From an uncultured Candidatus Saccharibacteria bacterium (GTDB lineage: Bacteria > Patescibacteriota > Minisyncoccia > Phycocordibacterales > JBBTRF01): a DNA stretch of 64,000 nucleotides. This document shows, piece after piece, positions 5,426 through 62,379 of the stretch. The stretch spans positions 70,303-134,302 of the forward strand of contig CAZRTH010000001.1 of NCBI GenBank assembly GCA_964602975.1, in the 5' to 3' direction. The notes under the pieces were generated by a model. It was not told the DNA's origin. It saw only the letters and a list, made by a program, of their open reading frames with translations, and did no database searches. The first letter of the stretch is position 1, and every line of letters begins with the position of its first letter. Both the position numbers and the translations under genes were made by a program.

Positions 5426-7081
5426 TTACTTCCCCTGCGCCGCCTCTAGCTGAATATGGAAGGTCGAACCCTTACCTTCGCCAGGTGATTCCACCCAGAC
5501 CCTGCCTCCCTGATGCCCTTCCACCATCTGCTTCACGACATACAAGCCGAGACCGGTACCGGAAACGTTGGTCGAGATGCCATTCTTGGCACGGCTAAAT
5601 TTTGCGAACAACTTCTCGATGTTTTCCGCGGAGATACCGACGCCAGTGTCTTTCACGGAAATATCGATACAGTTGCTAGAGTTTCCCTGTCCACTCGCGC
5701 CTATTGGTGTCACTCGTGTTCCTCGCGTTACCTTCACGGACACTGAACCCTTCGGTGTGTACTTGATCGAATTATCGACAATATTGGTGATCGCCTGCTT
5801 TATCTTCCCCAGGTCGATCCGCGTCATGAATTTTTCAGTGCGATCGAAATCCGCGGTCAAAGTGATGCCTCGCTTCTCCGCGTTTGGCTTCAATTCATCG
5901 CAGACTTGCGAGACGATCGCCCCGACATCGGAGACGACAAAGTCGTACTTCATTTGACCCTGCTCGATACGGGAGATGTTGAGGAAGTCGTCCACCATGA
6001 TCGCCATGCTGCTGCTGGATTGCAGGATGATGTCGACAACCTCTCGGAGCTCTTTCGAAAGCGGGCCGAAATTGCCTTCCATTATCAGAGAGGAGTATCC
6101 TTTGATCGCGGTGATAGGCGCGCGGATCTGATGCGACGCGATAGACAAGAACTCGGACTTCAGCTGGTCGAGCTCTTTGAGGCGATCGTTTGCTTTGGCG
6201 AGGTCTTTGGCAAGCGATTCGATGCGCTCGCGGGTGGAGACTTCTTTAATAACGCTACGAATTAGCAGTGTTCCGAAGACAACTACAACAAGTAGGACGA
6301 AGATGTTGATAATCTGGTCGAGGTTATTGGTAGAAAGAAATACTTTTACCAATAGTACTATCCATAGCGAGAAAGTGATGATTTGAGTCGCAACAACCTT
6401 CATATCAAAAAGATGGTGACGTGTTATAGCGTAACCGATAGAGAAAACCATAATGACGGTGAACACTGGCCCTAACCAGATGTATTGGTAATTACCAACA
6501 AATGGGAGGAATAGATTAAATACCATTCCTAAAAGAAAGGCGAGGGATGTTCCACCGATAATAAAATTGAGTTGCAGACGTTCCTCATAAGACTTAAATA
6601 ACCTGTATTTCTTAAAGAAGATGTAATATGAAATTGACACATACATCAAAAAATACATTGAGTATGCGAAATAATGGTTGTAATCGAGTAATGCATTCTT
6701 TCCCCACTCGGCCTGCTCGATAGCTACTACGAGAAAATGACTATCGTACAGGAAAACTCCGACAAGCAAGAAAATTGGCAACAAGATCAGGAGATTCCTA
6801 AAACTAAACCTAAAATTATTTTCTAAAAATGCGATTGCGAAGTAGAGAAAAAAGGCTGGAATCGCTGCAGCAGCAATGTAGTACACATTAGCTGTAAACA
6901 GGGATCTGGAGAGGTTATGGTCTAGGATAAAAACGGCTAGGCCGAGTGCCCATACGGCTACCGAGAAGACAAACGCAGAATAAATGACGTTTGTAGCTGT
7001 CTTCTTTCCAAAGAAAACGAAAAGGGAGAGAATTGTGTTAATACCGGCCGTAATAAACAGAAGCGATGATTGAAAACCCAT
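5426..7081 (-). CDS. sensor histidine kinase with multi-pass (approx 8 TM) N-terminal membrane domain
   Basis: 551 aa; long hydrophobic N-terminal half, coiled coil, H-box SIASHQIRAPITAIKGY, HATPase_c G-boxes (GTGLGLYVVKQMVEGHQGGRVWVES). Confidence 0.85.
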   Translation of the reverse strand: MGFQSSLLFITAGINTILSLFVFFGKKTATNVIYSAFVFSVAVWALGLAVFILDHNLSRSLFTANVYYIAAAAIPAFFLYFAIAFLENNFRFSFRNLLILLPIFLLVGVFLYDSHFLVVAIEQAEWGKNALLDYNHYFAYSMYFLMYVSISYYIFFKKYRLFKSYEERLQLNFIIGGTSLAFLLGMVFNLFLPFVGNYQYIWLGPVFTVIMVFSIGYAITRHHLFDMKVVATQIITFSLWIVLLVKVFLSTNNLDQIINIFVLLVVVVFGTLLIRSVIKEVSTRERIESLAKDLAKANDRLKELDQLKSEFLSIASHQIRAPITAIKGYSSLIMEGNFGPLSKELREVVDIILQSSSSMAIMVDDFLNISRIEQGQMKYDFVVSDVGAIVSQVCDELKPNAEKRGITLTADFDRTEKFMTRIDLGKIKQAITNIVDNSIKYTPKGSVSVKVTRGTRVTPIGASGQGNSSNCIDISVKDTGVGISAENIEKLFAKFSRAKNGISTNVSGTGLGLYVVKQMVEGHQGGRVWVESPGEGKGSTFHIQLEAAQGK

Positions 7082-7092
7082 TTGTCGTGTTA

Positions 7093-7995
7093 TTATTTTT
7101 CCGCCACAATCACCGTATGTACCTTGAGTGGTTCGTATAATACTAACATTTTTTCCTTTTGAAATCCTGCCTTATGTAGAAGCTCAGCGAGCTCTTCGGC
7201 TCTACGATAAATCATTGGCCAACCGATAGCGTTGGTGACAAACTTCATTTCTTTGTTGTGCACGATATTCGCCGTAATGAGCGAGCCATTAGGTTTGAGA
7301 GATTCGTGAATTGAACGAAGTGTTTCAATTGTTTTTTCGTCATCAAAATAATCTAGTAGACCGACCATCTCTACTACGTTATATTCCTCTTTTGGCGACA
7401 CGGTTTTGAAAAAATTACCGACGGTATCGTTTAGCCATCGAAACTTCTGGTCATTACCGAAAAATTCCTTAACCATCGCCTGACTATACCTCAGGGCCTC
7501 AGGATTTTTATCTAAAAAAACGGCCAACACTGGAACGGTTCCGACTGCACCAGCATCTTTAAGAGATTCAATTACTGCTCGGGCCGATCCGGAAGCAATG
7601 CTGAGTATCGAAATTTCCTCCTTTTTGACAACTAACTCCAAAAACACCTCCTTGAGCTCGCGTTTAACCAAGCGAAGGCGATTTCTAACCCCACGGGAAT
7701 TATTGCTATGAAACCAGATATGATGGGACACTTTCTGGAATAGATTTTTTGACTTGTGTGGGTGACCATTCTGATAGAGAACTTCAAGTGCCTGATGAGT
7801 AGTCGCATTCTTAATTACCTCATCGGCTGCTTCATGACTTTTCTTTATAGCATTACGAAATTTGGGTGGAATGTTATTAAGCGCAGGAATAAGAAAGAGA
7901 TTCGCGAAGGACTTGAAGAGACTATTTTTCTCGTAACCTAAGGTGTTGTCTCGGTCGGTTTTTGTTGAGGTGATTCGGTGGTTATTTTGATTCAT
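7093..7995 (-). CDS. class I SAM-dependent methyltransferase
   Basis: 300 aa; Rossmann motif I ILSIASGSARAV, acidic motif II LLDYFDD, motif LKPNGSLI; 11 nt downstream of histidine kinase on same strand. Confidence 0.7.
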   Translation of the reverse strand: MNQNNHRITSTKTDRDNTLGYEKNSLFKSFANLFLIPALNNIPPKFRNAIKKSHEAADEVIKNATTHQALEVLYQNGHPHKSKNLFQKVSHHIWFHSNNSRGVRNRLRLVKRELKEVFLELVVKKEEISILSIASGSARAVIESLKDAGAVGTVPVLAVFLDKNPEALRYSQAMVKEFFGNDQKFRWLNDTVGNFFKTVSPKEEYNVVEMVGLLDYFDDEKTIETLRSIHESLKPNGSLITANIVHNKEMKFVTNAIGWPMIYRRAEELAELLHKAGFQKEKMLVLYEPLKVHTVIVAEK

Positions 7996-9082: not shown

Positions 9083-12000
9083 TTAGAACTCGTCTAGGTC
9101 GGGATTGGTTCGGACGGTCACGGTGATCTCTGATACAGCCTTTGGCGTGCCTGTCGCTCGGCTCACACCCTTTGAGAAGACCTTGAGAGCATATCGGTAG
9201 GTGCCCTCAGTGTTGAATGGGCCAACTTTGATCGTGTTGCCGCTGATCGCCGTGCTGTATAGTTGCTGGGAGAGTACGTCGCTCGTTCCGCCGGTGCCGG
9301 ACTGACTAATGAAGTAGAAGTCATCAGCATTACCGCCGGAAATGCTGTATCGTAGTGCCGCGGCTCTGCCTTTTTGGGTGGTGATCGATGATTTATACAC
9401 GCTTGGGCTGGAAGGTGCCGCAGCCGAAGTGTTTGCGATGGAGACAGCGCCGAATTCTAGGTCGGAAGCGACCATCTCTGACGGTACCGCAGGACAGCTA
9501 ATGAGCTGCGAGCTATTCACCGCCACCGAGGAGTCCGCTACCGACACTGTTGGGAATTGACCGACCATCGCGCCGTCTATTTTGAATGAATCGGTTGGGG
9601 TCGAGACACCGGTATGGGTGACTGTGCTAGCGCCGCTTGGTGTCCAGTTGAATCGGAACGGCTGGTTGCCCTTGAAACTCCCTGTGATGTCTGCCGTCCA
9701 TGTCCAGCCATCGGGACTTGTCGATTTGGTTGGTGGATTGCAAGTGAGGCCGAGGATGCTCGAGGTCTCGCATACGCCGATACAGGAGGCGCCACCGCCC
9801 GGAGGAGGCGTATAAGTGGTTCCGCCACCGCCACCAACTGGCAGAATAGTGACAGTCGCACTCATCGTCTTCTGCTGCGCTCCGGAAGTGACAGTCATCG
9901 TACCGGTCTTGGTGCCGGCGCTTGCATAAGAAGTTGTGGTTCGATCGGCCGTGCCGGAGACGTCGCTTGACCAAGAGTAGGCATAGGTACCGGTACCGCC
10001 CGAAACAGTGACCGTCCACGTGATGGCATCGTTCACATATGCTGTTGCTGGGCTGCCAGTGACCGCCGCTTGGAGCTCTGGCGGTGGCGGAGCGGTGACG
10101 GTGGCGTTTGGACAAGTGACCGAGAGTGTCTGGTTGCCTGAATAAATGGTCACGCTCGCAGTCTTGGTGCCTGGAGTGCTGTATACGATCGGTGCGGTTC
10201 TGCTTCCGCCATTCAGGCCGTCGCTTCCGGTCCATGAATAGGTGTAAGTGCCATCGCCGCCGGAAGGATTCGTGCTCCAAGTAGCGATCTCATCGACTTG
10301 CGCGCCGACCGGTGCCGTACAGCTTGCGGTGATCGCTGGAACAGGTGGCGGAGGTGTAGGTGGCGTGAGGATATTGGCCGTGGATGAGACAGTAATAGTC
10401 TGGCCCGCAGAGACCACCTGTACACTTGCGCTCTTTTGGCCGGCGGATGAATATGCAACCGTCGCGCTCTGAGTGAAGCCTGCGAGGCTCTGACTACCGC
10501 TCCATGAATAAGAGTAGGTACCATCGCCACCCTGAGGCACTGCTGCCCAAGTGATCGGCTCGCCAACATATGCGGTAGATGGATTTGCCACGATATCTAC
10601 ATTCAAAGCTGGCGGGGTGACCGGCGCTGGGGCGACGGAAATATCTGGACATGTCTTGACGAGGGACTGCTCGCCGGAGAATATCGTAACAGTGGCTCCC
10701 TTGGTACCCGCCGTAGGATAATTGATAGAAGTTTCGGTGCCTCCGCCATTCAAACCGTCTGTGCCGGTCCATGAATAGGTGTAGGTGCTGTCGCCGCCTG
10801 AAGCCGACACGGACCATGTCGATATTTGCAAAGCAATAGGGTTTGTCGGAACCGTACAAGTAGCGGTGATCGGTGCTGGGGGCTCTGGCGGAGGAGGCGG
10901 TACAATTGCAGGCTGGATCACCGCCTGAGCACTGACCGTTTTGAGTAATCCGCCGGAAATAACCTCCACAGTAGCGGTCATTGTTCCGGCTGTTTGGTAT
11001 GAAATTGTCGCGCTCGGGGTGAAGCCGGCAAGACTCTGGCTGCCGCTCCAAGAGTATTCATATGAGCCATCTCCTCCTTCAGGCACAGCGGACCAAGTGA
11101 TCGGCTCTCCCACGCGGGCAGATGGCGGACTCGCGACAACGACCACTTCAAGAGGTGGCAAAGGCGGCGTGCCGACACTGATGTTTGTACAAGGCACGAC
11201 AAGCGTCCTGCCGCCCGACGATATCGCGACGCTGGCAAACTTGATACCCGCAACGCTGTACACTTTCGGTGCCGATGTTCCGCTACTTGCGAGAGAGTCC
11301 GATCCAGACCAGGAATACGTAAAGGTACCTGTTCCTCCGGAAGCCGTAGCACTCCATGTGGCGACTTGGCCTGTGATGGCACCCGTCGGAGAGATACACG
11401 AGCCGGCAATATCAGGAAGTTCAGGATCAGGATTCGAAGGGACTGGCACGTCAAACTGGACCCAGCCAAGCACGTCTGAACCCCAGGCATATCCGGCATA
11501 TCGGCTGTCGCTGTTCAGCTGCACGCCGTAGTTGCCGCTTGCTGTAATACCGCTCAGGCTGACCCATCCGCCCCAGCCACCTCGTGGGTCAGGGTTGGTT
11601 GCAGTATAGGTTGTTCCTGCGGCGTCGGAACATGTCGAAGGGCTCGAGGCTGCTCCACAAGCACGTACCCAGCCGGAAAGTCGGCCGGTGGAAGCATCGA
11701 CTCGGGCGTTCTGGCGCACCGTTCCGGGCGCCACTGTACTCGATGGCATTGAGTCGGTCGCGAGACCGCCGAATTTGATCCAACCGATATTCGCAGCCCA
11801 AACATAGCCGGTGAGATTTCCGTAAATATCTCGGTTCACGCCGTATTCGCCGCTAGGAGCCGCTTCGTTGTTGCTGCTAAAGCTGAGCCAGCCGACAGTC
11901 GATGACCAAGCCCAGCCTGCCAGTGCTGTGGGGATAGCGAAGGTCGAGCCAGGAGTGCTGTAGCCGTTGGTATCAACAGGAGTTGGATTAACTTCTTCAG

Positions 12001-15000
12001 AAGTCGGAGCTGGTGAAGCCGTGGCCTCGACGGGTGTTTGGGTGGTCTGAGCTGCCGGATCGGTCACCGAGAAGCTGAAGGTTACGGATGTCAGAGGAGT
12101 GCCTGCATCGTACATGAGTACGGTTAACCCCGCGTTATTGAAAAGTGGCGTGGCGCTAGTGGTGTCGATACGGAGAGTGGCAGTACAAGACGGGCTCGGA
12201 GTACAAGGTGCGTTCATGAACGAATACGTCGTGCCCGCAGGCATCGTGCTCCCCATCGTAAAGGTGACCGGCTTCCCCGCTCCGGTGCTCGTTTTTTGCA
12301 CAGCGATTGAAACATATGCAGGAGAACCTCTTGGTACGGTTACCGGACTGTTGGTGGTAGCTGAAATGGTGAATGATTCCGCTCCGTTGGCCGGAGCAGA
12401 GGCGACATGGAAATTGAAGAGAAGATCGGTGCTATTGGCGTTGCCTGCAGTATCGCTACAACGAACATAGTAGCTACGGTAGCTGCCGTTTGTCAGGCCG
12501 GTGAGCGTCGCAGAATGAGTTTTGCCGCCATTGCTCGCAGTGAGGGTCGAGGTCATAGCCGAGTATGGCGTACCGGATGGATTGGTGTAGGTTGTAGCGT
12601 ACTTGCAAGTAGCCGATTCATCAGTATCCAAAGAGATGAAGGTACTCGTTGTGCCGGCAGGAAGCTCGGTGAAGCTCGATGGTGGTAGCGGCGGCGTCAC
12701 TCGGGTGCGTACTGGCGGCATTCTGTCTACGCCAGCCAGAACCGTCACTTTCGCCACTTCGTACGCAAGAGTGGTTGGCCCCGTTCCCGCAGGCAGGTTT
12801 GTTAGATTGGTGAGAGAAAAACGATCTGGACCGTCATAAAAACCAGTCATCAGACGGTACTCTCCTGGCGGCAGAGTGTTGGTAGGAGTTTTAAAGGTAA
12901 ATGTTTCGGATCGATCACCGCCGGACCACGTTGAAGGATATTGTGAGAACGTCAGGTTCGGATAGCCCATGTCGTTGGACCCAATGACGAGAGAGTTGTC
13001 GGCATTGACGAGAAAACTGAACTGGTTCCAATTCTTCTCGGTCGGACCGCCACGATAATGGTAGGTGACAGTGAATATTTCCCCCTGTCTTGTAGTGATA
13101 GTAGCGGGTGTTGCCGGCAAAATGCTCACAGCCGTGACTTGGCGAGTCGGGCCCGAAGTCGGGCAAGCACCGAGTGCGCAGCCGCCGCTTGCAGGAGGAA
13201 CAACGGCTACCGTCACGTTTCCGCCGGTATTCGTGAGGTTCGCTTTTGCCAGAGCACCCTGGCTGGCATTGTAGTAGCTACCGCTACCGCTCGATTGCAG
13301 CCTCACCGCTCGGACCATGTAGCGTGAAAGTCCCGAAGAGACAGAAGGGTCAGTGAAGGTTGTCGCAGTGATCGGACTAGTCGTGAGACGAGCGAAAGCG
13401 CCATTTCCTAGAGCCCGATACACGTGATATCCGACAATACCGACATCAGGAGAAGCTGTCCAGCTTACATTGACTGAATTTACGCCGCCAGAGCTGAGCA
13501 CGATGCTTGTCGGAGGCAGAACAGTATGGAGGTGGAGCGTCGGATCACCCATGAGCGCTGCTGCCGACGCACGTTTGGTTCCACTGGCAGTCCATTTATA
13601 GAGAGGCGCATACGACTGTGCGGGATCGATGTTTTGTGACAATCGAGTGCTGTCTCCAAGCGTTTCACCGAGGCCCATGCGATAAAACTTCCAATTATAA
13701 AAACCTACCCAAGCGCTGCTCAAACCGTATGCCTGGTCGGCAATAAAAGAGCGCATGAGGTTATCGGAAAAATCCCAATCTCCAAAATAGCTGCCGAACA
13801 TCTGATTGAAAATGCCGGGGCTTTTGCCACTTGCTACGATATCATTGGTAGCGATTCCATTGTAAATACCAGCAGGATAGCCAGGGCCAGCGAAGCGAGT
13901 CCACAGGTTTCCATTTCCATCACCAAGAGAAGAACTAGAGAAGAAGCCGTTCTGTCCGAAAAAGGCGACGAAGTCCTTCCATGTGTCCTGCTCGTGCAAG
14001 AAAGCGAACAGATCGGAAGTGTAGCCAACACCTACTGTCGACATGCCTCCGACCCTAAAGAGATGGTCTTTGTTCAAATATTGGCGCAGAAGATCTTTCT
14101 CGTTCTTTGGCAAGAAAGCGGTCATGTTCGCGAAGTCGACTCGGCCAACTGCCAGCTCCACCTTTGAAGGAATCGTGTTCTGGTCGAATTTCCCGTCTCC
14201 CGGAAAATTGGCGGTTCTGGTGGGGATCGTCGGACAGACAAGTTCGACTGGGCATCGTGACGCACTAGATTGCGTATCGGTCCATGTTCCGTCTATGTCT
14301 CCATAGAAAACATCTGCCGGCCAAGCGCCATTATGATCATCGTGCCCGTCCGACGCCGCGAATCCTGAGTATGGCACCGGTACGTGGCCGAACAGGAACA
14401 CATGCGATGTTACTGCCGGATCCTCGAGATATTTTTGAGCAATGAGATTTCGTACAAGCGAAGGCGTGTCCGCCCTAGATACATCAAGCCGCACGACCGT
14501 CCAACCATCGCCCTCGAGGTCATCCTTCAGACGGTCCAACTCGAAAGAAAGGTCCGACGCGTATGTATTGTCCACTACCAAGACCACTCGGCCGCGACTA
14601 TCCACCAAAGGCGCTTTGTTGCCGGCCAGCACATAGGCTTCGTCGGTTCCCCCGCCATTGATCGTTTTGACCACGCGATACTCAAATACCGAACCGGGAC
14701 CGGCTGATGTGTCCAGATAGGTCAGGGGCGTTGGTCCAGAAATAGTACCGATGATCGAACCCCACGAGTCTGCGTTCTTTGCCTTTCGATATATATCGTA
14801 TTTTTGCGCGTTTGGATCGGCACTCCACTGCAGGAGGATGCCGGACGGACTTTCGTTCGCAGAAGCGCTCAACAGAACAGTGCTTGGCAGCACAGCATCA
14901 CCTGCGTTTGCCGTAGACGGTATGAAATATCCAGAGAGAAGCAGAAGACCGGCCACCACGACAGAACCAAAGAATGCCTTTGTTCTTTGAGCGGTTGGTA

Positions 15001-15004
15001 TCAT
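9083..15004 (-). CDS. giant secreted/cell-surface protein (1973 aa) with FN3-like modules, about seven alternating PKD-like repeats, Trp-rich GW..GW[IL].F repeats
   Basis: Signal peptide MIPTAQRTKAFFGSVVVAGLLLLSGYFIPSTANA; FN3-like segments; repeated ...TWS..ASGGDGTYTYSWTGTDGL... (PKD-like YxYxWxxxDG) alternating with ...PITWAAVPQGGDGTYSYSWSGSQSLAGFT...; GWAWSSTVGWLSF / GYVWAANIGWIKF / GYAWGSDVLGWVQF motifs. Confidence 0.85.
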   Translation of the reverse strand: MIPTAQRTKAFFGSVVVAGLLLLSGYFIPSTANAGDAVLPSTVLLSASANESPSGILLQWSADPNAQKYDIYRKAKNADSWGSIIGTISGPTPLTYLDTSAGPGSVFEYRVVKTINGGGTDEAYVLAGNKAPLVDSRGRVVLVVDNTYASDLSFELDRLKDDLEGDGWTVVRLDVSRADTPSLVRNLIAQKYLEDPAVTSHVFLFGHVPVPYSGFAASDGHDDHNGAWPADVFYGDIDGTWTDTQSSASRCPVELVCPTIPTRTANFPGDGKFDQNTIPSKVELAVGRVDFANMTAFLPKNEKDLLRQYLNKDHLFRVGGMSTVGVGYTSDLFAFLHEQDTWKDFVAFFGQNGFFSSSSLGDGNGNLWTRFAGPGYPAGIYNGIATNDIVASGKSPGIFNQMFGSYFGDWDFSDNLMRSFIADQAYGLSSAWVGFYNWKFYRMGLGETLGDSTRLSQNIDPAQSYAPLYKWTASGTKRASAAALMGDPTLHLHTVLPPTSIVLSSGGVNSVNVSWTASPDVGIVGYHVYRALGNGAFARLTTSPITATTFTDPSVSSGLSRYMVRAVRLQSSGSGSYYNASQGALAKANLTNTGGNVTVAVVPPASGGCALGACPTSGPTRQVTAVSILPATPATITTRQGEIFTVTYHYRGGPTEKNWNQFSFLVNADNSLVIGSNDMGYPNLTFSQYPSTWSGGDRSETFTFKTPTNTLPPGEYRLMTGFYDGPDRFSLTNLTNLPAGTGPTTLAYEVAKVTVLAGVDRMPPVRTRVTPPLPPSSFTELPAGTTSTFISLDTDESATCKYATTYTNPSGTPYSAMTSTLTASNGGKTHSATLTGLTNGSYRSYYVRCSDTAGNANSTDLLFNFHVASAPANGAESFTISATTNSPVTVPRGSPAYVSIAVQKTSTGAGKPVTFTMGSTMPAGTTYSFMNAPCTPSPSCTATLRIDTTSATPLFNNAGLTVLMYDAGTPLTSVTFSFSVTDPAAQTTQTPVEATASPAPTSEEVNPTPVDTNGYSTPGSTFAIPTALAGWAWSSTVGWLSFSSNNEAAPSGEYGVNRDIYGNLTGYVWAANIGWIKFGGLATDSMPSSTVAPGTVRQNARVDASTGRLSGWVRACGAASSPSTCSDAAGTTYTATNPDPRGGWGGWVSLSGITASGNYGVQLNSDSRYAGYAWGSDVLGWVQFDVPVPSNPDPELPDIAGSCISPTGAITGQVATWSATASGGTGTFTYSWSGSDSLASSGTSAPKVYSVAGIKFASVAISSGGRTLVVPCTNISVGTPPLPPLEVVVVASPPSARVGEPITWSAVPEGGDGSYEYSWSGSQSLAGFTPSATISYQTAGTMTATVEVISGGLLKTVSAQAVIQPAIVPPPPPEPPAPITATCTVPTNPIALQISTWSVSASGGDSTYTYSWTGTDGLNGGGTETSINYPTAGTKGATVTIFSGEQSLVKTCPDISVAPAPVTPPALNVDIVANPSTAYVGEPITWAAVPQGGDGTYSYSWSGSQSLAGFTQSATVAYSSAGQKSASVQVVSAGQTITVSSTANILTPPTPPPPVPAITASCTAPVGAQVDEIATWSTNPSGGDGTYTYSWTGSDGLNGGSRTAPIVYSTPGTKTASVTIYSGNQTLSVTCPNATVTAPPPPELQAAVTGSPATAYVNDAITWTVTVSGGTGTYAYSWSSDVSGTADRTTTSYASAGTKTGTMTVTSGAQQKTMSATVTILPVGGGGGTTYTPPPGGGASCIGVCETSSILGLTCNPPTKSTSPDGWTWTADITGSFKGNQPFRFNWTPSGASTVTHTGVSTPTDSFKIDGAMVGQFPTVSVADSSVAVNSSQLISCPAVPSEMVASDLEFGAVSIANTSAAAPSSPSVYKSSITTQKGRAAALRYSISGGNADDFYFISQSGTGGTSDVLSQQLYSTAISGNTIKVGPFNTEGTYRYALKVFSKGVSRATGTPKAVSEITVTVRTNPDLDEF
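9790..11650 (-). repeat. in-frame tandem DNA repeats (~267-bp period) encoding the PKD-like modules of the giant protein
   Basis: recurring blocks such as ccatgaatag gtgtaagtgccatcgccgcc at ~10236, ~10503, ~10770, ~11050; two alternating repeat subtypes. Confidence 0.8.
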
Positions 15005-35742: not shown

Positions 35743-36579
35743 TTAGCACAACGTCGCCAACTCCTCCTTCACTTCGCTGATCTTGCCGGTCGAAAGTCCC
35801 ATTGAGCTCAATATGGAGGTGTCAGCACTGAGCGATTTACACAACACAATACCCCTCTTGAACAATTCCTGGCGATGACTGTCGGTGAGAGAGTTGATGC
35901 AGGTGAGCGGATGAAGACCGCTTTCTTCGATCCATTGTTCGAGATTGCCTTTTTCTGGGTAGTTCCAACCGATCATTTTCAGGCCGGCACAGCGACCGTA
36001 GTCGATGGCGGTTTGGGTGAATTTTGTGTTGGTGATCAAACAGCCCTCGCCGAAGGCGCGCTTCTTGCCGCCGTAGTTGAACAACTGCGAACGCAAGTCA
36101 TCGAAGCGCGCCTTCACGTACAAGGCCACTTTCAGATCGGTCTTGAAGCCCAGTTCATTGTGAAATTTCAGCTCACAAAGAACAAGCTGAGCATCGTTAT
36201 ATGCCACCACATCCACTTCATGCGGGACGCAGGCGCCCTGCACTGTTTGATCGGTGAGCGCTTGATACCCTTTGGCACGAAACACCTCGGCGATGAACTT
36301 CTCAAAAGGAAAGCCGGTGGGTCCGAGACCGATGAGGGCGCGGCGAAGAGAATACTTCGCCGCCACCGGCTTTTGATGTTCGCGGAGCAGATTGAAAGCG
36401 TGTCGATAGATATCGCTGGTCGTGATACCAGGCACTATTTCTCGCTCGACGTGCTCGACGATCCTCGCGATCACGGCATCGCTAGTACCGACTCGCTTGA
36501 GCGAATACGCCAATTTCTCGGGACGGAAAGACTCGCTGGTGCCATCCGCCTTCAGAATATTGATCTGCTGAGAAGACAT
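35743..36579 (-). CDS. ATP-cone domain fused to Mrr-like (PD-D/ExK) restriction-endonuclease domain
   Basis: 278 aa; N-terminal ATP-cone-like ~90 aa (ILKADGTSESFRPEKLAYSL...), C-terminal ...GFPFEKFIAEVFRAKGY...VDVVAY..LCELKFH. Confidence 0.6.
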   Translation of the reverse strand: MSSQQINILKADGTSESFRPEKLAYSLKRVGTSDAVIARIVEHVEREIVPGITTSDIYRHAFNLLREHQKPVAAKYSLRRALIGLGPTGFPFEKFIAEVFRAKGYQALTDQTVQGACVPHEVDVVAYNDAQLVLCELKFHNELGFKTDLKVALYVKARFDDLRSQLFNYGGKKRAFGEGCLITNTKFTQTAIDYGRCAGLKMIGWNYPEKGNLEQWIEESGLHPLTCINSLTDSHRQELFKRGIVLCKSLSADTSILSSMGLSTGKISEVKEELATLC

Positions 36580-54669: not shown

Positions 54670-54803
54670 AAGGAGACTTTCATTCCGTCAATTTGGATCT
54701 CAAAGAACCCGCCCCCGACATCCGGAGGTAAATGTTTTATACAGTAAAAAACGCGCCAGGGCAAGCGGTTGACGAAAGAGTGAAAGACACACAAAATGGA
54801 TAC

Positions 54804-55481
54804 ATGCATACGTTCGAAGTCGAAGTTAAGGCCCTTTTAGGAACAAATGAAGCAGCTGAGGAACTCATCAAAGGCATGCGCGCTTCAGATCCCGAGTTCA
54901 AAGAGCTTGGGAGACATCGCCAACTCAACCATTATTTTATCGGAAATGACCTCGCGTCACTTTCTCAAAAACTCAGTGGCCATGGAGAACCTTCAAAAAA
55001 CAGTTTGCTGAAAGATCTTGTTCCTCGTGCGCACAATTGTTCGGTGCGTACACGGCTGGCAGACAAGGACGCGATTTTGGTGATCAAAGCATCGGTTGAT
55101 GACACCAGTAGCGCGAACGGCACAGCCCGCATGGAAATTGAGGCTAAGACTCCAAACTTAAGCCTAGAGCAGCTCGATCAGTTGGTACTTGCGTCGGGGT
55201 TTGCCTATCAGGCCAAATGGTCTCGCGAGAGAAGAGAATTTTTGTACCGTGGACTGAATGTCAGTATTGATAAAAATGCCGGTTACGGTTTCCTCGCTGA
55301 ATTCGAGATGATAGTAAATGATCCCACAAAGATCGATTCAGCAAAAGACCTTCTGCGATCCACTCTGAAAGAACTAGCAATATCAGAGCTGCCGCAAGAT
55401 CGGCTCGAGCGAATGTTTGCCCACTACAACAAGAATTGGCAGACATATTACGGTACCGAGAAGACTTTTATTGTTGACTAG
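54804..55481 (+). CDS. CYTH-domain (triphosphate tunnel metalloenzyme/CyaB-like) protein
   Basis: starts MHTFEVEVKAL (ExExK), later ARMEIEAKT and GFLAEFEMIV acidic strands; ORF track begins 24 codons upstream. Confidence 0.6.
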   Translation: MHTFEVEVKALLGTNEAAEELIKGMRASDPEFKELGRHRQLNHYFIGNDLASLSQKLSGHGEPSKNSLLKDLVPRAHNCSVRTRLADKDAILVIKASVDDTSSANGTARMEIEAKTPNLSLEQLDQLVLASGFAYQAKWSRERREFLYRGLNVSIDKNAGYGFLAEFEMIVNDPTKIDSAKDLLRSTLKELAISELPQDRLERMFAHYNKNWQTYYGTEKTFIVD

Positions 55482-55491
55482 GAATCATCGA

Positions 55492-55974
55492 TTACAACTT
55501 TTTCACCTCCCTCAACTCCTGCTTCAAGATCTTCGCGGAATATTCGGCATTGGAGGGTCGGTCGAAAAGAAATTTGCCTCGGAACTTTTGTCCGGCGAGG
55601 AAAAACGGAAACCAGTGGATATCGTCAGACCACATTTGTTCAAAAGGGATATGGTCGACATGGAACCATTGCGGCTTCATTTCTTCGGTCTCGATCGGTT
55701 CGCCTCTGAATTCTGTGACGCGAAAAATATGGACCTCGAGTACGGCCGGATCGCTCTCAAACGAAAACTCGAGTATCCCCTGCTTCTCCATTTTCACCGC
55801 CTCAATTCCAACTTCCTCTTTTAGCTCGCGCGTCGCGGCTTGCTCAAGTGTCTCTCCCTTCTCAATTTTTCCACCAAAACCATTCCATCGTCCCACGCCA
55901 AAACGCCGCTTTTTCATGCCAAGAAGCACTTTTGGATGCTGATAGATCATGCAAAGCGTGAGCGGGATCTTCAT
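55492..55974 (-). CDS. Nudix hydrolase (MutT-like)
   Basis: 160 aa; Nudix box GGKIEKGETLEQAATRELKEEVG. Confidence 0.85.
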   Translation of the reverse strand: MKIPLTLCMIYQHPKVLLGMKKRRFGVGRWNGFGGKIEKGETLEQAATRELKEEVGIEAVKMEKQGILEFSFESDPAVLEVHIFRVTEFRGEPIETEEMKPQWFHVDHIPFEQMWSDDIHWFPFFLAGQKFRGKFLFDRPSNAEYSAKILKQELREVKKL

Positions 55975-55998
55975 GTCTTTTATTCTATCAGAGCGACG

Positions 55999-56021
55999 AA
56001 AAATCCGCTCGTGCGGATTTT
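55999..56021 (-). terminator. rho-independent terminator after tRNA-Ala (AAAATCCGC-acga-GCGGATTTTT)
   Basis: 9-bp stem then U-run on minus strand, directly 3' of the tRNA. Confidence 0.6.
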
Positions 56022-56025
56022 GTTG

Positions 56026-56098
56026 TGGACCCTACAGGACTCGAACCTGCCACCCCCTCATTGCAAATGAGGTGCTCTACCAGATGAGCTAAGGGCCC
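56026..56098 (-). tRNA. tRNA-Ala (anticodon UGC)
   Basis: hand-folded cloverleaf: GGGCCCT/AGGGTCC acceptor with G3:U70 Ala identity pair, D-loop ATCTGGTA, anticodon loop TTTGCAA, T-loop TTCGAGT, discriminator A; CCA not encoded. Confidence 0.88.
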
Positions 56099-56218
56099 GT
56101 CTTTCCGACCGTCGCATCATACCAAAAAGAACCTAAAAAAACAACGGGGTAGACACTAAAGTAATATTCACAGAAATCATGTACAAAAAGCTAATAAAGT
56201 TGTATGGTGGAGACATAA

Positions 56219-57187
56219 ATGAAATCAATTAATAAAGTTTTTTTCAGCATTATTAGTTTATCAATATTTGCACTTCTGCTTTCTCTTACAAACACGGCAG
56301 ACGCTTATGTCTCTGTTAAAGGTTATTATAAAAGTAACGGTACTTACGTTTCTCCACACGTTCGAAGTAACCCAAATGGACTAAAGTCTGATAACTACAG
56401 TTACACTCCGAGTCAAGGCGCATACAATAAGACATACGGAACAAGAGGTGCGGAATGGGATACCCCGACCTATATAACAGATCCAAGTTACTACCAAGGA
56501 AAGTCTTTATACGAGTCTGGAAATAGTAATTCTGGAACCTACTATCAATACCCGACGACTCCGACTTGCCCGATAAATTCGTACTACGATGGTGTATCTT
56601 CTTGTAAGTGTAATTATGGTTATATTGTAAGTGGAGGTAGTTGTGTTAATGCTAATAATTATTGCTCGAGTCAGCTTGGGGTAATGTCCCAATACAACAG
56701 TTTATCCAATAAGTGTGAGTGTATGAGTGGCTACGAGCAAAGTGGTTCAACTTGTGTTTATAAGATTCGAGACTACTCAAATTCCTCTGGATATTCGAGT
56801 ATGCCCTCTTACAACTGCCCATTAAATTCGCACACATCACCAACTGAGCCAACGAAGTGTGATTGTGATTCCGGATATCAAGTTAATTCAAGCAAGACGG
56901 CCTGCGTTCTCCTAAACAATAATGTGAATAATCAAGCTTGCATCAACTCATATGGCGCCCATAGTAATTGGGATGGTACAAAAACGCCTACAGGTTTAAT
57001 AAATTGCGTCTGTCAGGCAGGGTATACTTGGAATAATTCAAAGAGTGCCTGCGTTGCAATCATACCTCAACCACAATATCAAAATGACGAACTCATTGGA
57101 AAAAATTATTACTTAAATAATCGTACCTGTGTAGGTCTTTCTGATAATCAATACTCATACTGTATTAGCTACGCATACAACCACTAA
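56219..57187 (+). CDS. secreted cysteine-repeat protein (322 aa) encoded in AT-rich DNA
   Basis: signal peptide MKSINKVFFSIISLSIFALLLSLTNTADA; four C-x-C-x2-G-Y-x(4-7)-C-V modules; canonical SD GGTGGAG 6 nt upstream of ATG, unlike neighbouring genes; N/S/Y-rich. Confidence 0.6.
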   Translation: MKSINKVFFSIISLSIFALLLSLTNTADAYVSVKGYYKSNGTYVSPHVRSNPNGLKSDNYSYTPSQGAYNKTYGTRGAEWDTPTYITDPSYYQGKSLYESGNSNSGTYYQYPTTPTCPINSYYDGVSSCKCNYGYIVSGGSCVNANNYCSSQLGVMSQYNSLSNKCECMSGYEQSGSTCVYKIRDYSNSSGYSSMPSYNCPLNSHTSPTEPTKCDCDSGYQVNSSKTACVLLNNNVNNQACINSYGAHSNWDGTKTPTGLINCVCQAGYTWNNSKSACVAIIPQPQYQNDELIGKNYYLNNRTCVGLSDNQYSYCISYAYNH

Positions 57188-57191
57188 CCCA

Positions 57192-57223
57192 CTCCCCCTC
57201 GCCAATTCTACCAAACGTTCAAC
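57192..57223. repeat. 32-bp direct repeat copy A: fragment duplicating the 3' end of ddl
   Basis: CTCCCCCTCGCCAATTCTACCAAACGTTCAAC vs 58389-58420 CTCCCCCTCGCCAATTCCACCAAATGCTCAAC (29/32). Confidence 0.8.
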
Positions 57224-57491
57224 TGCAATAAAATCCGAAAGCGAATAATACTTCGTTCCAAGCGAACAATCTACCTTGCGTGCAATACTCTGGATCATTA
57301 TGATTTTAGCGGAGTAAAATTGCCTAGGAAAATCTCCTCCTTATCTTCTCTTCTGTCGCTTGAAAAACTCAACCTGCCTCAAACGCTTCACTGCAGCCTC
57401 CCGACTTTTATACGGTCCGCCTAGATTTTTTCCCGTCTTTGATAAAACAAGATACCCATTTTTGCGTTTTCTGATCATGTGCTTGATCTAT

Positions 57492-57896
57492 TTATTTTCT
57501 GCGTCGCGCTCCCTGCGCCTTGCGAATATTCCGCTTTCGAGCCCGCTTCTGAGCTCTCGTTGGCTTCTCGCTCTCGGGAACATTTCTCCGTGGCCTAGCT
57601 GCAAATACATCGCCCTTTCTGTGTACGATCGGACCTCGGACCTGTTTCAATACCGTCTTGGCCTTGGGATCATCGATCACCAATTTCCCCCGAGTATCAA
57701 CATGTGCTTTCTTTTTTTCCACGAGCCAAGTGACCGTATCCCAGCTACCGCTCCTACGCTTCCCCGCAATACGCTCGAGCCCGTCGCGCTCTCCGACATC
57801 TTGCGTCCTAAAAGTCACGAATTCGCTCTTCGGCCTGATCTCGATCCGATAGAATCGCCCTTTGCCACCGGTACCCGGTTTCTTTCTTGTTGCCAT
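57492..57896 (-). CDS. hypothetical small basic protein (134 aa), co-oriented 5 nt downstream of hsp20
   Basis: K/R-rich termini, central GSWDTVTWLVEKKKAHVDTRGKLVIDD; no known motif. Confidence 0.5.
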   Translation of the reverse strand: MATRKKPGTGGKGRFYRIEIRPKSEFVTFRTQDVGERDGLERIAGKRRSGSWDTVTWLVEKKKAHVDTRGKLVIDDPKAKTVLKQVRGPIVHRKGDVFAARPRRNVPESEKPTRAQKRARKRNIRKAQGARRRK

Positions 57897-57901
57897 AGGT
57901 A

Positions 57902-58306
57902 TTATTTTTTAGTTTTAACCTTACCTCTTTTCTCACCTTCGACCTTCGGGAGAGTGATAGTGAGCACGCCATCTTTGCAAGTCGCCTTCACCTGGTCTTC
58001 TTTGACACGATCCGGTAGTGTGAATTCCCGTCGAAATTCGCCGAAGAATCGCTCATATCGATACGGCCTCGTGCTTTTGTCGGTCTCCACTTCTCGCTCG
58101 GACTTGCCGCTGATCGTCATCCAATTGTCCTGAACATCAATATTGATATCTTCAGGGTTGATGCCCGGCACATTGGCTACAACTTTTACTTCCGTATCGG
58201 TTTCGCTCACGTCGACTCGCGGAACATCGTCTTCAAATTCATCCAAAAAGATCTCCCGCTCTGGTTTGACGATTGCTCTGATGCTTTTTTTCTTTTCTTT
58301 TTTCAT
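57902..58306 (-). CDS. Hsp20/alpha-crystallin family small heat-shock protein
   Basis: 134 aa; alpha-crystallin domain ...FRREFTLPDRVKEDQVKATCKDGVLTITLPK... Confidence 0.85.
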   Translation of the reverse strand: MKKEKKKSIRAIVKPEREIFLDEFEDDVPRVDVSETDTEVKVVANVPGINPEDINIDVQDNWMTISGKSEREVETDKSTRPYRYERFFGEFRREFTLPDRVKEDQVKATCKDGVLTITLPKVEGEKRGKVKTKK

Positions 58307-58329
58307 GTTGTTTTTTGATTAGTGAAATA

Positions 58330-58353
58330 TAAAAAATGAGGATACATATCCTC
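58330..58353 (-). terminator. rho-independent terminator after ddl (GAGGAT-atgt-ATCCTC then U-run)
   Basis: 16-bp palindrome GAGGATACATATCCTC followed on minus strand by ATTTTTTATATTT. Confidence 0.5.
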
Positions 58354-58384
58354 TGCTTTAGACGATTTGAATTGTAGATACTTA

Positions 58385-59416
58385 CTACCTCCCCCTCGCC
58401 AATTCCACCAAATGCTCAACAAGCTCGGTCAAACCGGAACCCACCGCCCGCATTGCCTTTGGGAACAGTGAATGTTCAGTGAGGCCAGGCAAAGTGTTCA
58501 CCTCCAAGAAATACACTCCGCGGCGCGGATGCACGATAAAATCCGATCGAGAATAGTGCTTCAATCCGAGCGAGCGATGCACCTCGCGCGCCATACGCTG
58601 GATCTCGGCGCTTTCAGTCGGGGTAAAATTACCTGGGCAAATTTCTTCACTCGCACCACCATATTTCGCTTCATAATCAAAAAGTGGCGAGCCGGCTTGT
58701 TTGCGGATCTCCACCGGTGGCAATGCGTAGTGTTTCTCCCCGCGAAAATGGTCAACCACTCCGCACGTCGCCTCTTTGCCTGCAATATATTCCTCGATCA
58801 GCACTGTATCGCCATGCTCGAAAGCCGAATGAATCGCCTTCTCCAATTCCTTCAGAGTACCGACGACAGAGACACCGATCGACGAACCGGCACTCGCCGG
58901 CTTCACCACTGCCGGATGAGGGAAACTCCTAAACACTTCGGCAGCTTTTTTTGCAACATTCTTCACCTCTTCTTTTCGCAAGACCAGATGCACCGCCGTC
59001 TTTATCTTCCCCGCGCCACTCGATCCACCACCTTGCGCTGCATGATGTGCCAAGTGCTTTTTAGTGAGCACTTTGTTCATCGCGACAGCCGAAGCCAGCG
59101 CGCCAGAGCCGGTGTACGCCGCTTTGTACGCATCCAAAAGAGTCTGGATCTTGCCATCCTCACCAAAACTGCCGTGAAGCGCGTTGAAGAGAACATCAAC
59201 ATGCTTCATGATCTGCTCCGGTTTTTTCTCCACGCCGTCAAAATGCCATTTGCCGTCACGCGTGATGAGAACATCGTGCACGCGATATTTAGAAGTCGGC
59301 AGATGTTTGATCACTGTGCCACCTGTTTGGAGCGAAACAGGATATTCAGAAGAAGTGCCGCCGCGCACCACGCCGACACGAATCTTTGAAGCCGTTTTGT
59401 GCGAGCCTGCCGTCAT
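58385..59416 (-). CDS. ddl: D-alanine--D-alanine ligase
   Basis: 343 aa; ATP-grasp fold, C-terminal ...SRSDFIVHPRRGVYFLEVNTLPGLTEHSLFP... Confidence 0.9.
   Translation of the reverse strand: MTAGSHKTASKIRVGVVRGGTSSEYPVSLQTGGTVIKHLPTSKYRVHDVLITRDGKWHFDGVEKKPEQIMKHVDVLFNALHGSFGEDGKIQTLLDAYKAAYTGSGALASAVAMNKVLTKKHLAHHAAQGGGSSGAGKIKTAVHLVLRKEEVKNVAKKAAEVFRSFPHPAVVKPASAGSSIGVSVVGTLKELEKAIHSAFEHGDTVLIEEYIAGKEATCGVVDHFRGEKHYALPPVEIRKQAGSPLFDYEAKYGGASEEICPGNFTPTESAEIQRMAREVHRSLGLKHYSRSDFIVHPRRGVYFLEVNTLPGLTEHSLFPKAMRAVGSGLTELVEHLVELARGR
58389..58420. repeat. 32-bp direct repeat copy B (authentic 3' end of ddl)
   Basis: see copy A at 57192-57223. Confidence 0.8.
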
Positions 59417-61398: not shown

Positions 61399-62379
61399 TC
61401 ACTCAGCGTCAGCTTCCAGCCGACGCTGCAACACACGATCTGGATCCGGAATCCCCTTTTGAACATCCCACGCGAGATCGCTCAGCTCCATCAGCTTGAT
61501 GAAGACGTAGCTCGCATCGAAGTAGGGGTGATCCAAGCCGTGCAGTGACGAATTCGGGAAGGCGTGATGATAGTTGTGCCAACCTTCGCCGAGCGCGAGG
61601 ATGCCGACCAACCAACTGTTCTGCGAACGGTCGCTCGTGCTCACCTCGTGACTCCCCCAGAGATGGCAATAGCTATTCACCATCGAGGTGACATGTTGGT
61701 GGATGAAGAGACGAATCGCGCCGCCCCAGAGGAAGCCGAGTAACGCCCCCTTCCACGTGCCTTCGTGCAAAAAGCCGAGGCCCGCGGGAATGAGGAGCCC
61801 GATCGTGATCCAGAGAGCGATATGTCGATCGACAAAGGACACGATCGGATCGACAGTGAGGCGCCTGAAAGCAGCGTTCTGCGGGATCGGGATTCCCTTC
61901 AGCATCCAGCCGAATTGGGCGTGCCAGAAACCCTTCCATAGATTGAGAAAGGACACTTTGGTGAACTTTCCATCGTCGTCGAGACAATACTTCCAGGGCG
62001 AATGCGGGTCGCCGGCTTCGTCGCTGTGAACATGATGATGTTGATGCAACGAGCACCAAGTGACGATCTGCCCTTGGGCAGCCATGGCGCCGGTGATGGC
62101 ACCAAAATACTTCATCACAGGCATCACTTCAAACGAAGCGTGGGTGAAGAATCGGTGATACCAGACGGTGGTGCCAAAACCGGCCACAATGTAGCAGCCA
62201 ATGAAGAGCCCGACGTAGAACCAGTCGAAGCTGCCGTGATAGACCTGAAAGGCGATCGCGCCCAGCAAGCCGAGGAACGGCAGCAGCCAGAAGACAATGA
62301 TCGTCGCCTTGTCGGCGCTGTTGTAAACGAGCGGAGCATGCGCGTGCGAAGACGCGCCAGGTGAGGGGTGAGTGTTCAT
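61399..62379 (-). CDS. membrane fatty-acid desaturase (acyl-lipid/acyl-CoA Delta9-type)
   Basis: 326 aa; His boxes HRFFTH, HHHVHSD(E), HNYHHAFP; 4 TM. Confidence 0.85.
   Translation of the reverse strand: MNTHPSPGASSHAHAPLVYNSADKATIIVFWLLPFLGLLGAIAFQVYHGSFDWFYVGLFIGCYIVAGFGTTVWYHRFFTHASFEVMPVMKYFGAITGAMAAQGQIVTWCSLHQHHHVHSDEAGDPHSPWKYCLDDDGKFTKVSFLNLWKGFWHAQFGWMLKGIPIPQNAAFRRLTVDPIVSFVDRHIALWITIGLLIPAGLGFLHEGTWKGALLGFLWGGAIRLFIHQHVTSMVNSYCHLWGSHEVSTSDRSQNSWLVGILALGEGWHNYHHAFPNSSLHGLDHPYFDASYVFIKLMELSDLAWDVQKGIPDPDRVLQRRLEADAE

Follow-up and report, generated by a model that had tools for sequence, protein, structure and literature searches.

The 64,000-nt stretch analysed here (the window, from contig CAZRTH010000001.1; coordinates are positions within it, and L-numbers such as L001 designate loci of relatives) encodes, at 56219..57187 on the + strand (stop codon included), a secreted protein of 322 amino acids (aa) with tandem cysteine modules. 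We consider it probable that this cysteine-repeat gene (the Cys gene) is an accessory, envelope-associated secreted gene of Patescibacteria (Paceibacteria/Parcubacteria-type) that is old at its present site. For the window this result is mostly corrective: an earlier interpretation made from the letters alone (the sequence-only reading) had taken the gene for a recent arrival, and what we find is an old accessory resident rather than a fresh tRNA-integrated island. The open reading frame (ORF) lies, as that reading had it, beside a divergent, native tRNA-Ala(UGC) gene (56025..56098, -), which ARAGORN reports, as tRNA-Ala(TGC), to be the sole tRNA of the whole window. The 120-nt spacer between the two genes holds a conserved tRNA-Ala promoter block (56099..56145, -) with the extended -10 TGGTATGAT, followed by the Cys gene's own upstream region (56146..56218, +), and the promoter block forms the left edge of a ~1.04-kb segment (56146-57187) with a single gene.

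The age of the gene is indicated by its ortholog P0002, which occurs in Hainich groundwater contigs and in GCA_964355935.1 (L001-L004; L001 is the locus of GCA_964355935.1), is 81% identical and sits in L001 between the same tRNA-Ala and the D-Ala-D-Ala ligase gene ddl. In L001, the tRNA-Ala is 100% identical, the 47-nt promoter block (one mismatch) and the upstream element precede the Cys gene as in the window, and the stop codon of the Cys gene lies 1 nt from that of the convergent ddl, with uvrC next. Global identities of the flanking genes between the window and L001 span 57-88% (gmk 57%, NUDIX 62%, uvrC 79%, desaturase 81%, ddl 88%; first-pass tblastn gave 75% for uvrC, 82% for the desaturase and 87% for ddl), a range that includes the 81% amino-acid identity of the Cys gene. 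By the Nei-Gojobori method, the Cys gene has a proportion of synonymous differences (pS) of 0.67, with 1.7 synonymous (dS) and 0.106 non-synonymous (dN) substitutions per site and a dN/dS of about 0.06, compared to a dS of 1.4-1.6 for ddl and uvrC and a pS of 0.64-0.75 for the flanks. Occupancy of the same site and synonymous saturation like that of the flanks imply that the gene, claimed by the sequence-only reading to have been acquired recently, is not a recent arrival: it was at this site before the lineages of the window and L001 separated. Judged by these substitution rates, it is a real and functional gene under strong purifying selection.

Homologs of ddl place the window in Patescibacteria/Paceibacterota, the named homologs of both the Cys protein and ddl all being Patescibacteria, Paceibacterota or Parcubacteria, and they supplied three further relatives, L089 (ERZ4222710 NODE_1), L090 (GCA_974945995.1) and L091; 15-21 kb of each relative was examined. 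The site between tRNA-Ala and ddl, occupied in L001, has no Cys gene in any of these three. In L089 (ddl 84% identical) the ddl stop is followed by 10 nt, the conserved tRNA-Ala promoter block and the tRNA, in L090 (81%), which also has the conserved promoter block, a 188-aa membrane protein gene and a tRNA-Ala(GGC) lie between ddl and tRNA-Ala(UGC), and in L091 (73%) a NUDIX gene comes after ddl, with neither the tRNA nor the Cys gene at the site. The gene is therefore present at the ddl/tRNA-Ala site in two of five related genomes and missing in three of four close relatives. On the 3' side of the tRNA, L089 and L090 run into a DUF2238 gene, whereas the window goes straight to NUDIX. As the ddl/tRNA-Ala spot is different in all five genomes, it behaves as a plasticity zone; the Cys gene is an old accessory gene in it and a useful marker of this hypervariable locus. 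Further afield, two distant AT-rich genomes, L006 (60% identity) and L021 (about 40%), also have a family member next to ddl and tRNA-Ala(UGC), there on the 3' side of the tRNA and on the same strand, and other close family members (L007, L008, L092, L093) stand in unrelated contexts. Three genomes have a DUF6804 gene (L001:6204-6512, L006:10329-10607 and L092:5111-5422) no more than about 4 kb from a family gene, a hint that this accessory gene neighbourhood recurs.

The 3' end of the Cys gene carries the trace of a younger event. The sequence-only reading had noted that the ORF ends exactly where a repeat of a ddl fragment begins, and we confirmed that a decayed ddl 3' piece (57188..57340, -) starts at the stop codon (57183/57188). 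This pseudogene remnant, which ends at about 57340, is 77-83% identical to the 3' end of intact ddl, has a 111-nt internal deletion and no longer has a stop codon. Its identity is higher with the ddl of the window (74-91%) than with that of L001 (70-81%), and it occupies the exact place of intact ddl in L001. Beyond it lies a block (57341..58384, -) with a 45-aa ORF (57341-57478), a basic 134-aa ORF without a family match (57492-57896) and an Hsp20 gene (57902-58306; Pfam E 1.4e-24), and then the intact ddl (58385..59416, -), the ancestral convergent neighbour as judged from the ORF list, the ddl homologs and L001. Since the block is absent between the Cys gene and ddl in L001, it is a younger insertion here and the Cys gene came first. 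Insertion of the Hsp20 block duplicated the ddl end, displaced ddl and left the 3' remnant.

That the gene had entered by integration at the tRNA, another proposal of the sequence-only reading, is not supported. The Cys gene is on the 5' side of the tRNA, beyond the tRNA promoter, and not on the 3' side used by integrases. The Cys ORF is alone in 56146-57187, with no integrase or recombinase in that segment (the neighbours being NUDIX, CYTH and Hsp20), and 55400-57500 contains no att-like or tRNA-derived direct repeats, the only direct repeat being an internal 15-mer between modules. The likeness to tRNA-associated genomic islands is real in that the gene adjoins a tRNA, deviates in composition and is present or absent among relatives with an intact 'empty site' in L089; the same tRNA even carries a true AT-rich island on its 3' side in L001. 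Unlike such islands, the segment is a single gene on the promoter side without integrase or tRNA-derived repeats. The L001 island (L001:5010-9800) is 4.8 kb long and of 32-40% GC, encodes an AAA_15/AAA_21 ATPase, a DUF6804 protein and several hypotheticals, and lies between the 3' end of tRNA-Ala and DUF2238; neither integrase nor att repeats were seen in it. The terminator ascribed to the tRNA in the window is weakly supported: a terminator-like hairpin at 56000..56021 (-) has a 9-bp stem and a U-run (-12.6 kcal/mol, z -2.4), but a strict scan of 55900-57500 returned no terminators, and promoter-like sites at chance level.

The gene had also been described as conspicuously AT-rich, and here windowed GC, codon and k-mer analyses give strong backing. 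GC content is 0.34-0.41 in the Cys-gene region versus about 0.52 window-wide, GC content at third codon positions (GC3) is 0.339 versus a mean of 0.61 (standard deviation, sd, 0.06-0.08) in the other genes (z -3.5 to -4.4), the lowest value among about 60 genes, and the tetranucleotide deviation in 1-kb steps has its window maximum at 56251 (0.63 versus 0.31 ± 0.06). From the amino-acid composition of the protein and codon usage elsewhere in the window a GC3 of 0.587 is expected, whereas 0.336 is observed (z -3.9), so that the AT-richness is not merely an effect of an N/S/Y-rich composition. The product contains 48 Ser, 36 Asn, 36 Tyr and 18 Cys, in agreement with the described richness in Asn, Ser and Tyr; the claimed richness in Lys is not borne out (15 of 322 residues). 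The next most deviant genes are a methyltransferase gene (7093-7995) and the gene for a CYTH protein (54732-55481).

Low GC3 is partly a trait of the whole family and does not by itself mark one event. It is shared by both lineages (0.34 in the window and 0.36 in L001, with flanking genes at 0.57-0.63), and the family gene is below the local mean at 20 of 22 loci, including all 11 with a local mean GC3 <0.45, a comparison that is descriptive only, the 22 loci not being independent of one another. The gaps are largest in higher-GC genomes (window -4.4 sd, L013 -2.4, L007 -2.35, L027 -2.2, L038 -2.0). Part of the deviation thus travels with the family, and the remainder would fit a gene that was transferred long ago from a lineage of lower GC and is not yet fully ameliorated. 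In the decayed ddl fragment, GC->AT substitutions outnumber AT->GC ones by 17 to 8, which indicates that neutral DNA here drifts toward AT and also allows an account of low GC3 by weak selection on codons. Since composition and codon usage are not average and the gene is not syntenic in all relatives, a foreign origin remains plausible; what falls away from the proposed horizontal acquisition is that it was recent and aimed at the tRNA.

The putative translation signal, which had been read as a foreign hallmark, is present, but it is neither unique nor conserved. The Shine-Dalgarno (SD)-like sequence GGTGGAG (56206-56212) lies 6 nt ahead of the ATG as described, with a duplex energy of -6.4 kcal/mol. 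Most genes of the window have no SD, about six have SD-like sites, and at least five others equal or exceed that of the Cys gene (at 54732, GGAGG, -10.1 kcal/mol; 8326, GAGGTGG, -8.8; and at 35743, 15123 and 62617). The closest ortholog (L001) keeps the 25 nt that precede the ATG except at the exact SD positions (GGTGGAGAC changed to GGTTGATAT), where GGTGGAG is replaced by GGTTGAT and the SD is absent. The element AAAGTTGTATGGT in the upstream region is identical between the window and L001, and includes a -10-like TATGGT (56203-56208). Across the window, a strong -10-like (TATAAT-like) hexamer lies 5-13 nt before the start of 16 of 61 genes, compared to 1.1 ± 1.0 at random positions (for example upstream of 55974, 59416, 5370, 52909 and 29372), which suggests that leaderless or near-leaderless mRNAs are common in this genome. 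The GGAG of the Cys gene overlaps or follows its -10-like hexamer and may therefore lie outside the transcript.

The product itself conforms to a conserved, modular secreted protein. By inspection, residues 1-29 (56219..56305) have the features of a Sec-type signal peptide cleaved by signal peptidase I, namely K2 and K6, a hydrophobic stretch at 7-23 (predicted helix at residues 5-21) and A27-D28-A29 before Y30, with cleavage predicted after A-D-A. A hydrophobic segment and [AS]-x-A ahead of a YVxVxGY motif are conserved across a 58-sequence homolog alignment, in support of the signal peptide that the sequence-only reading had assigned. Residues 30-99 (56306..56515) form a Tyr/Asn/Gly-rich N-terminal motif, YVxVxGYYxxNGTYVxPHxRSxPNG..DNYSY..., that holds invariant or near-invariant columns and is modelled with low confidence. 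The pattern C-x-C-x2-G-Y-x(4-7)-C-[VI] is matched four times (residues 129-143, 166-180, 214-230 and 263-279), which confirms the four modules noted before, and one extra Cys precedes each match to give four-Cys modules of the form C-x(11-21)-C-x-C-x(10-12)-C. The modules alternate between two types, CPxNS...CxCxxGY...C and C...G..S.Y.S...CxCxxGY...C: modules 1 (residues 117-143, 56567..56647) and 3 (200-230, 56816..56908) are of the former type (CPxNS...CxCxxGY...CV), the latter of them with weak similarity to an Eph-receptor Cys-rich profile. Module 2 (residues 149-180, 56663..56758) contains the best stretch for the Pfam model cEGF (residues 165-180), and module 4 (241-279, 56939..57055), like the others defined by alignment, is overlapped by weak DUF5874 and RANK_CRD_2 matches at residues 262-286. 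The C-terminal tail (280-322, 57056..57184) has the motif YYLxNxTCxGLSxxQYxxCISYAYNH with Cys304 and Cys315 and two predicted helices.

Searching a collection of 5.8 billion proteins retrieved 286 homologs at E<=1e-3, with E-values down to 1e-169, all of them unnamed or 'hypothetical'; the few source names are Patescibacteria (Paceibacterota, Magasanikbacteria, Staskawiczbacteria, Taylorbacteria). The Cys-repeat part alone (residues 112-322) retrieved 645 clusters (50% identity) at E<=1e-3 and 300 at E<=1e-10. Neither the full-length nor the Cys-part search retrieved any eukaryotic sequence, and we rejected on this ground a transfer of EGF domains from a eukaryote to a bacterium. The general architecture of the family consists of a signal peptide, the motif YVxVxGYYRxNGTYVxP.xRSxP[ND]G..[DN]NYS, a linker, four to six Cys modules and then either a tail or a wall-binding domain. 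Full-length alignment with 57 homologs shows the signal peptide, the N-terminal motif and the repeated CxCxxGY...C modules in this protein. It is homologous over its full length, at 35-81% identity, to this uncurated family of Patescibacteria 'hypothetical' secreted Cys-repeat proteins, some of which are annotated as 'SH3 domain-containing' or 'peptidoglycan-binding domain-containing'. It differs in having four modules, where most homologs have five and the one between modules 1 and 2 is missing here, and in not ending in PG_binding_1 or SH3_3, as about 20% of the 120 homologs listed do (19 and 5, respectively). A tail such as that of our protein, YYLxNxTCxGLSGxQYxxCISYAYNH, is conserved in a subset of homologs, with PG_binding_1 or SH3_3 at this position in others.

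Searched against NCBIfam, the protein gave no match, against PHROGs it gave one through the N-terminal motif alone (phrog_29674), and against Pfam cEGF remained sub-threshold (24.6 versus a cut-off of 26.6 bits), as did EGF_3 (14.7 versus 28.5). Pfam also found neither PG_binding_1 (PF01471) nor SH3_3 (PF08239) in this protein, these domains being present in paralogs only. Across 58 family members, Pfam matches comprise TIL (19), cEGF (15), EGF_3 (14), MSP1-EGF (4), FXa_inhibition (3), PG_binding_1 (5) and SH3_3 (5), and some members pass EGF-type models with E down to 6.9e-10. Literature searches on EGF-like or cysteine-rich secreted proteins of the Candidate Phyla Radiation (CPR), and with motif strings, returned nothing specific to the Cys-repeat family or the N-terminal motif within the library searched. 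The family is large, little known and without a curated Pfam or NCBIfam model; the protein is of moderate interest as a member of it and is not something categorically new.

An AlphaFold2 model built with the 58-sequence alignment predicts a beta-hairpin at each of the four C-x-C-x2-G-Y matches, with a predicted local distance difference test (pLDDT) score of 85-97 over the Cys modules and tail (78-94 in module 1, about 94 in module 2, 90-97 in the tail) and <50 over residues 27-111. The top Foldseek matches in the PDB are the Plasmodium proteins Pvs25 and Pfs25, each with four tandem EGF modules (E 1.7e-5 to 4.5e-4; template modelling (TM) scores 0.15-0.24), followed by NELL2 EGF, LRP2 and cysteine-rich domains (CRDs) of the TNFR family (TNFR1, CD40, 4-1BB). 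Low TM-scores are as expected for a model in which small modules are strung together flexibly. Among PDB sequences, a profile search gave a marginal match to the Cys-rich region of an Eph receptor (EphA2, E 6.5e-4). The EGF-likeness proposed by the sequence-only reading is thus backed by the predicted fold together with the weak profile matches, and the term 'EGF/TNFR-like disulfide modules' is supported as a resemblance in the model; with a score under the Pfam threshold and four Cys per module, the protein is not an EGF protein in the strict sense. With tandem EGF surface proteins (Pvs25/Pfs25; cEGF PF12662, EGF_3 PF12947) the protein shares the disulfide-rich beta-hairpin chain, predicted secretion and the C-x-C-x2-G-[YF]...C signature of the EGF C-terminal sub-domain. 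It differs from them in having four rather than six Cys per module (the six forming C1-C3, C2-C4 and C5-C6 disulfides), in being bacterial (Patescibacteria) where the known systems are eukaryotic, and in a Pfam score under the gathering threshold. The alternation of two module types and the marginal EphA2 and TNFR matches recall the A/B-type modules of TNFR and Eph-receptor cysteine-rich regions, but this similarity is marginal, there is no ligand-binding context, and the Pfam models RANK_CRD_2 and TNFR_nem score far below threshold.

The N-terminal motif has a far wider distribution than the Cys-repeat part. Pseudomonas, Massilia, Paenibacillus, Acinetobacter and Campylobacter have it, often in the form of free-standing secreted proteins of 70-100 aa, and it is also present on 125 viral (IMG/VR) contigs (L094-L173 among the loci), all of which match only residues ~1-120. 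The Cys-repeat part is not found on these viral contigs and there is accordingly no evidence of a phage vehicle. A module GYYRxNGTYVxPHYRSxPDG..NNYS..GNxNPYTG, for which Pfam and NCBIfam have no model, directly follows the signal peptide in many phyla and (pro)phages (L033, L047, L064, L074, L088). Small secreted proteins of the phrog_29674 type (Campylobacter, Acinetobacter, Methylophilaceae, Coxiellaceae, phage contigs) have the same N-terminal module after the signal peptide and, unlike the Cys-repeat protein, are without EGF-like modules or have other C-terminal regions. In L055 (Pseudomonas) and L058 (Massilia) the motif is joined to a different two-Cys tandem repeat, AKLDYFGxxWEC.RGY......C, from which it appears that the motif pairs with various Cys-hairpin arrays.

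Taken as a whole, the reading that we favour is as follows. The product would be made with a Sec-type signal peptide, the Tyr/Asn/Gly-rich motif, a low-complexity linker, four EGF/TNFR-like four-Cys modules and a two-helix tail with an extra Cys pair, would be exported via Sec and folded oxidatively outside the membrane, and would then serve, in or on the cell envelope, as a rigid array that binds or spaces and has no enzymatic activity. In paralogs the place of the tail is taken by peptidoglycan-binding or SH3 domains, which suggests association with the cell wall or the surface of a partner cell, and from this a cell-envelope or adhesive role may be inferred. For the formation of disulfides outside the cell, CPR genomes are reported to show an enrichment of MdbA-like oxidoreductase and VKOR (10.1101/335083). 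At the locus, the unit would be the ~1.04-kb single-gene segment that carries its own upstream region between the ddl stop and the tRNA-Ala(UGC) promoter. Its AT-rich codon usage would probably be a mix of family-intrinsic bias and an old lateral origin from a lower-GC Patescibacteria lineage, its delivery would not have involved a tRNA-targeting integrase, and the Hsp20 block would be a younger event.

Several observations weigh against this reading. The functional part rests on the fold and on the domain partners of paralogs, this protein being without a peptidoglycan-binding, SH3, anchor or transmembrane domain; the global TM-scores of the EGF-like matches to the model are low (0.15-0.24), and no obvious thioredoxin-like CxxC oxidoreductase emerged from the ORF scan of the 64-kb window. 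As to history, divergence is about equal among the window, L001, L089 and L090, and their genes have mosaic histories: the desaturase joins the window and L001, ddl joins L001, L089 and L090, uvrC groups nothing, and uvrA adds to the conflicting or star-like signals. These conflicts do not separate one gain from loss(es), and a gain in the ancestor of the window and L001 fits as well as ancestral presence followed by loss. The gene may also lie elsewhere in the genomes of the relatives, beyond the 15-21 kb, and the arrangement in L006 and L021 could mean ancient synteny and not acquisition. The fatty-acid desaturase (61399-62379, -) comes in two types, one 81% identical between the window and L001 and the other 86% identical among L089, L090 and L091, with 62-66% identity across types; ddl and uvrA do not share this grouping, which points to a mosaic or recombinant history in the clade.

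The alternative to which we give most room, while holding it clearly less probable than the old accessory gene, is purely vertical descent, with the gene ancestral to the Paceibacteria clade at ddl/tRNA-Ala and lost in L089, L090 and L091, and with low GC3 as an intrinsic, selected or expression-linked property of the family. The GC3 pattern at the 22 loci, including the 11 in AT-rich genomes, and the persistence of a GC3 of 0.34 and 0.36 in two lineages despite saturated synonymous divergence speak for it, as do members beside ddl and tRNA-Ala(UGC) in three well-separated lineages (window with L001, L006, L021) and the frequency of deletions in streamlined genomes. However, the deviation is small in AT-rich hosts and -0.25 GC3 units here, and loss from L089, with its 10 nt between the ddl stop and the tRNA promoter, would need near-exact edges. 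Simple conserved synteny also fails, because the side of the tRNA and the orientation of the gene both differ in L006 and L021, and the closest non-orthologous relatives are in unrelated contexts on contigs of 36-47% GC. Recent acquisition by integration at tRNA-Ala, with the SD and codon usage of the donor retained, is very unlikely: it would account for the strong compositional and codon deviation, for an SD-like GGTGGAG in a genome whose genes mostly lack such a site and for the absence of the gene from three relatives, and the AT-rich island beside the same tRNA in L001 shows that the locus takes up DNA, but the same-site ortholog in L001 is as diverged as the flanks at synonymous sites (dS about 1.7), the gene lies on the 5' side of the tRNA past the promoter with no integrase or att-like repeats, the SD is neither kept in the ortholog nor unique in the window, and the viral contigs lack the Cys-repeat part.

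As regards function, small disulfide-rich modules are typical of inhibitors and toxins, and the product could be a secreted effector, such as a TIL-like protease inhibitor or a toxin-like ligand acting on the host of the episymbiont, instead of a structural or adhesive protein. This general likeness, the weak TIL matches in 19 of 58 family members (and FXa_inhibition in 3) and the absence of an anchor domain in this member agree with such a role, which we nevertheless regard as unlikely, since the weak matches are shared with several EGF models and reflect Cys spacing, not a specific family; moreover, paralogs are fused to wall-binding domains and not to enzymatic or toxin domains, and the window ORFs include no adjacent immunity or secretion-system genes. 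An ORF that arose by chance, or a pseudogene in decay, within an AT-rich spacer would fit the lack of matches to a curated family or named function, but this reading has practically no probability left: AT-rich DNA has more chance stop codons, not fewer, so composition does not favour it, and it is refuted by hundreds of homologs with conserved Cys and motif columns, by a dN/dS of about 0.06 and by a confident structure prediction.

Patescibacteria depend on other cells, and we know of very few Patescibacteria surface proteins with an assigned role. A large uncurated family that combines a motif shared by bacteria and phages with EGF-like modules and frequent wall-binding fusions is a reasonable candidate for envelope or host contact. 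A bolder extension of the favoured reading, which we offer tentatively and deem rather improbable, is that the gene stands for an invention or adaptation of EGF/TNFR-like modules specific to Patescibacteria, that these modules form the contact surface between ultra-small episymbionts and the cells or walls of their hosts, and that the family has spread, without integrase, as promoter-carrying single-gene cassettes into the ddl-tRNA-Ala(UGC) neighbourhood, where members are found in three separate lineages on either side of the tRNA.

Other genes of the window also deviate. The CYTH-domain gene (54732-55481, +) has a GC3 of 0.46 and the strongest SD of the window (GGAGG). The 21-kb L001 locus contains no equivalent of it and has an HD-domain gene at the position between gmk and NUDIX, and later acquisition is more credible for the CYTH-domain gene than for the Cys gene. 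A second AT-rich stretch (5426-7995, -), with the second-highest tetranucleotide deviation, comprises the methyltransferase gene (7093-7995, GC3 0.42) and part of a gene for a seven-transmembrane (7TM) histidine kinase (5426-7081). Finally, the gene at 9083-15004 (-) encodes a protein of 1973 aa with a signal-peptide-like start, 20 Cys, an unusually high GC content at second codon positions (0.58) and weak SprB-repeat and fn3 matches, which is probably a giant surface protein.

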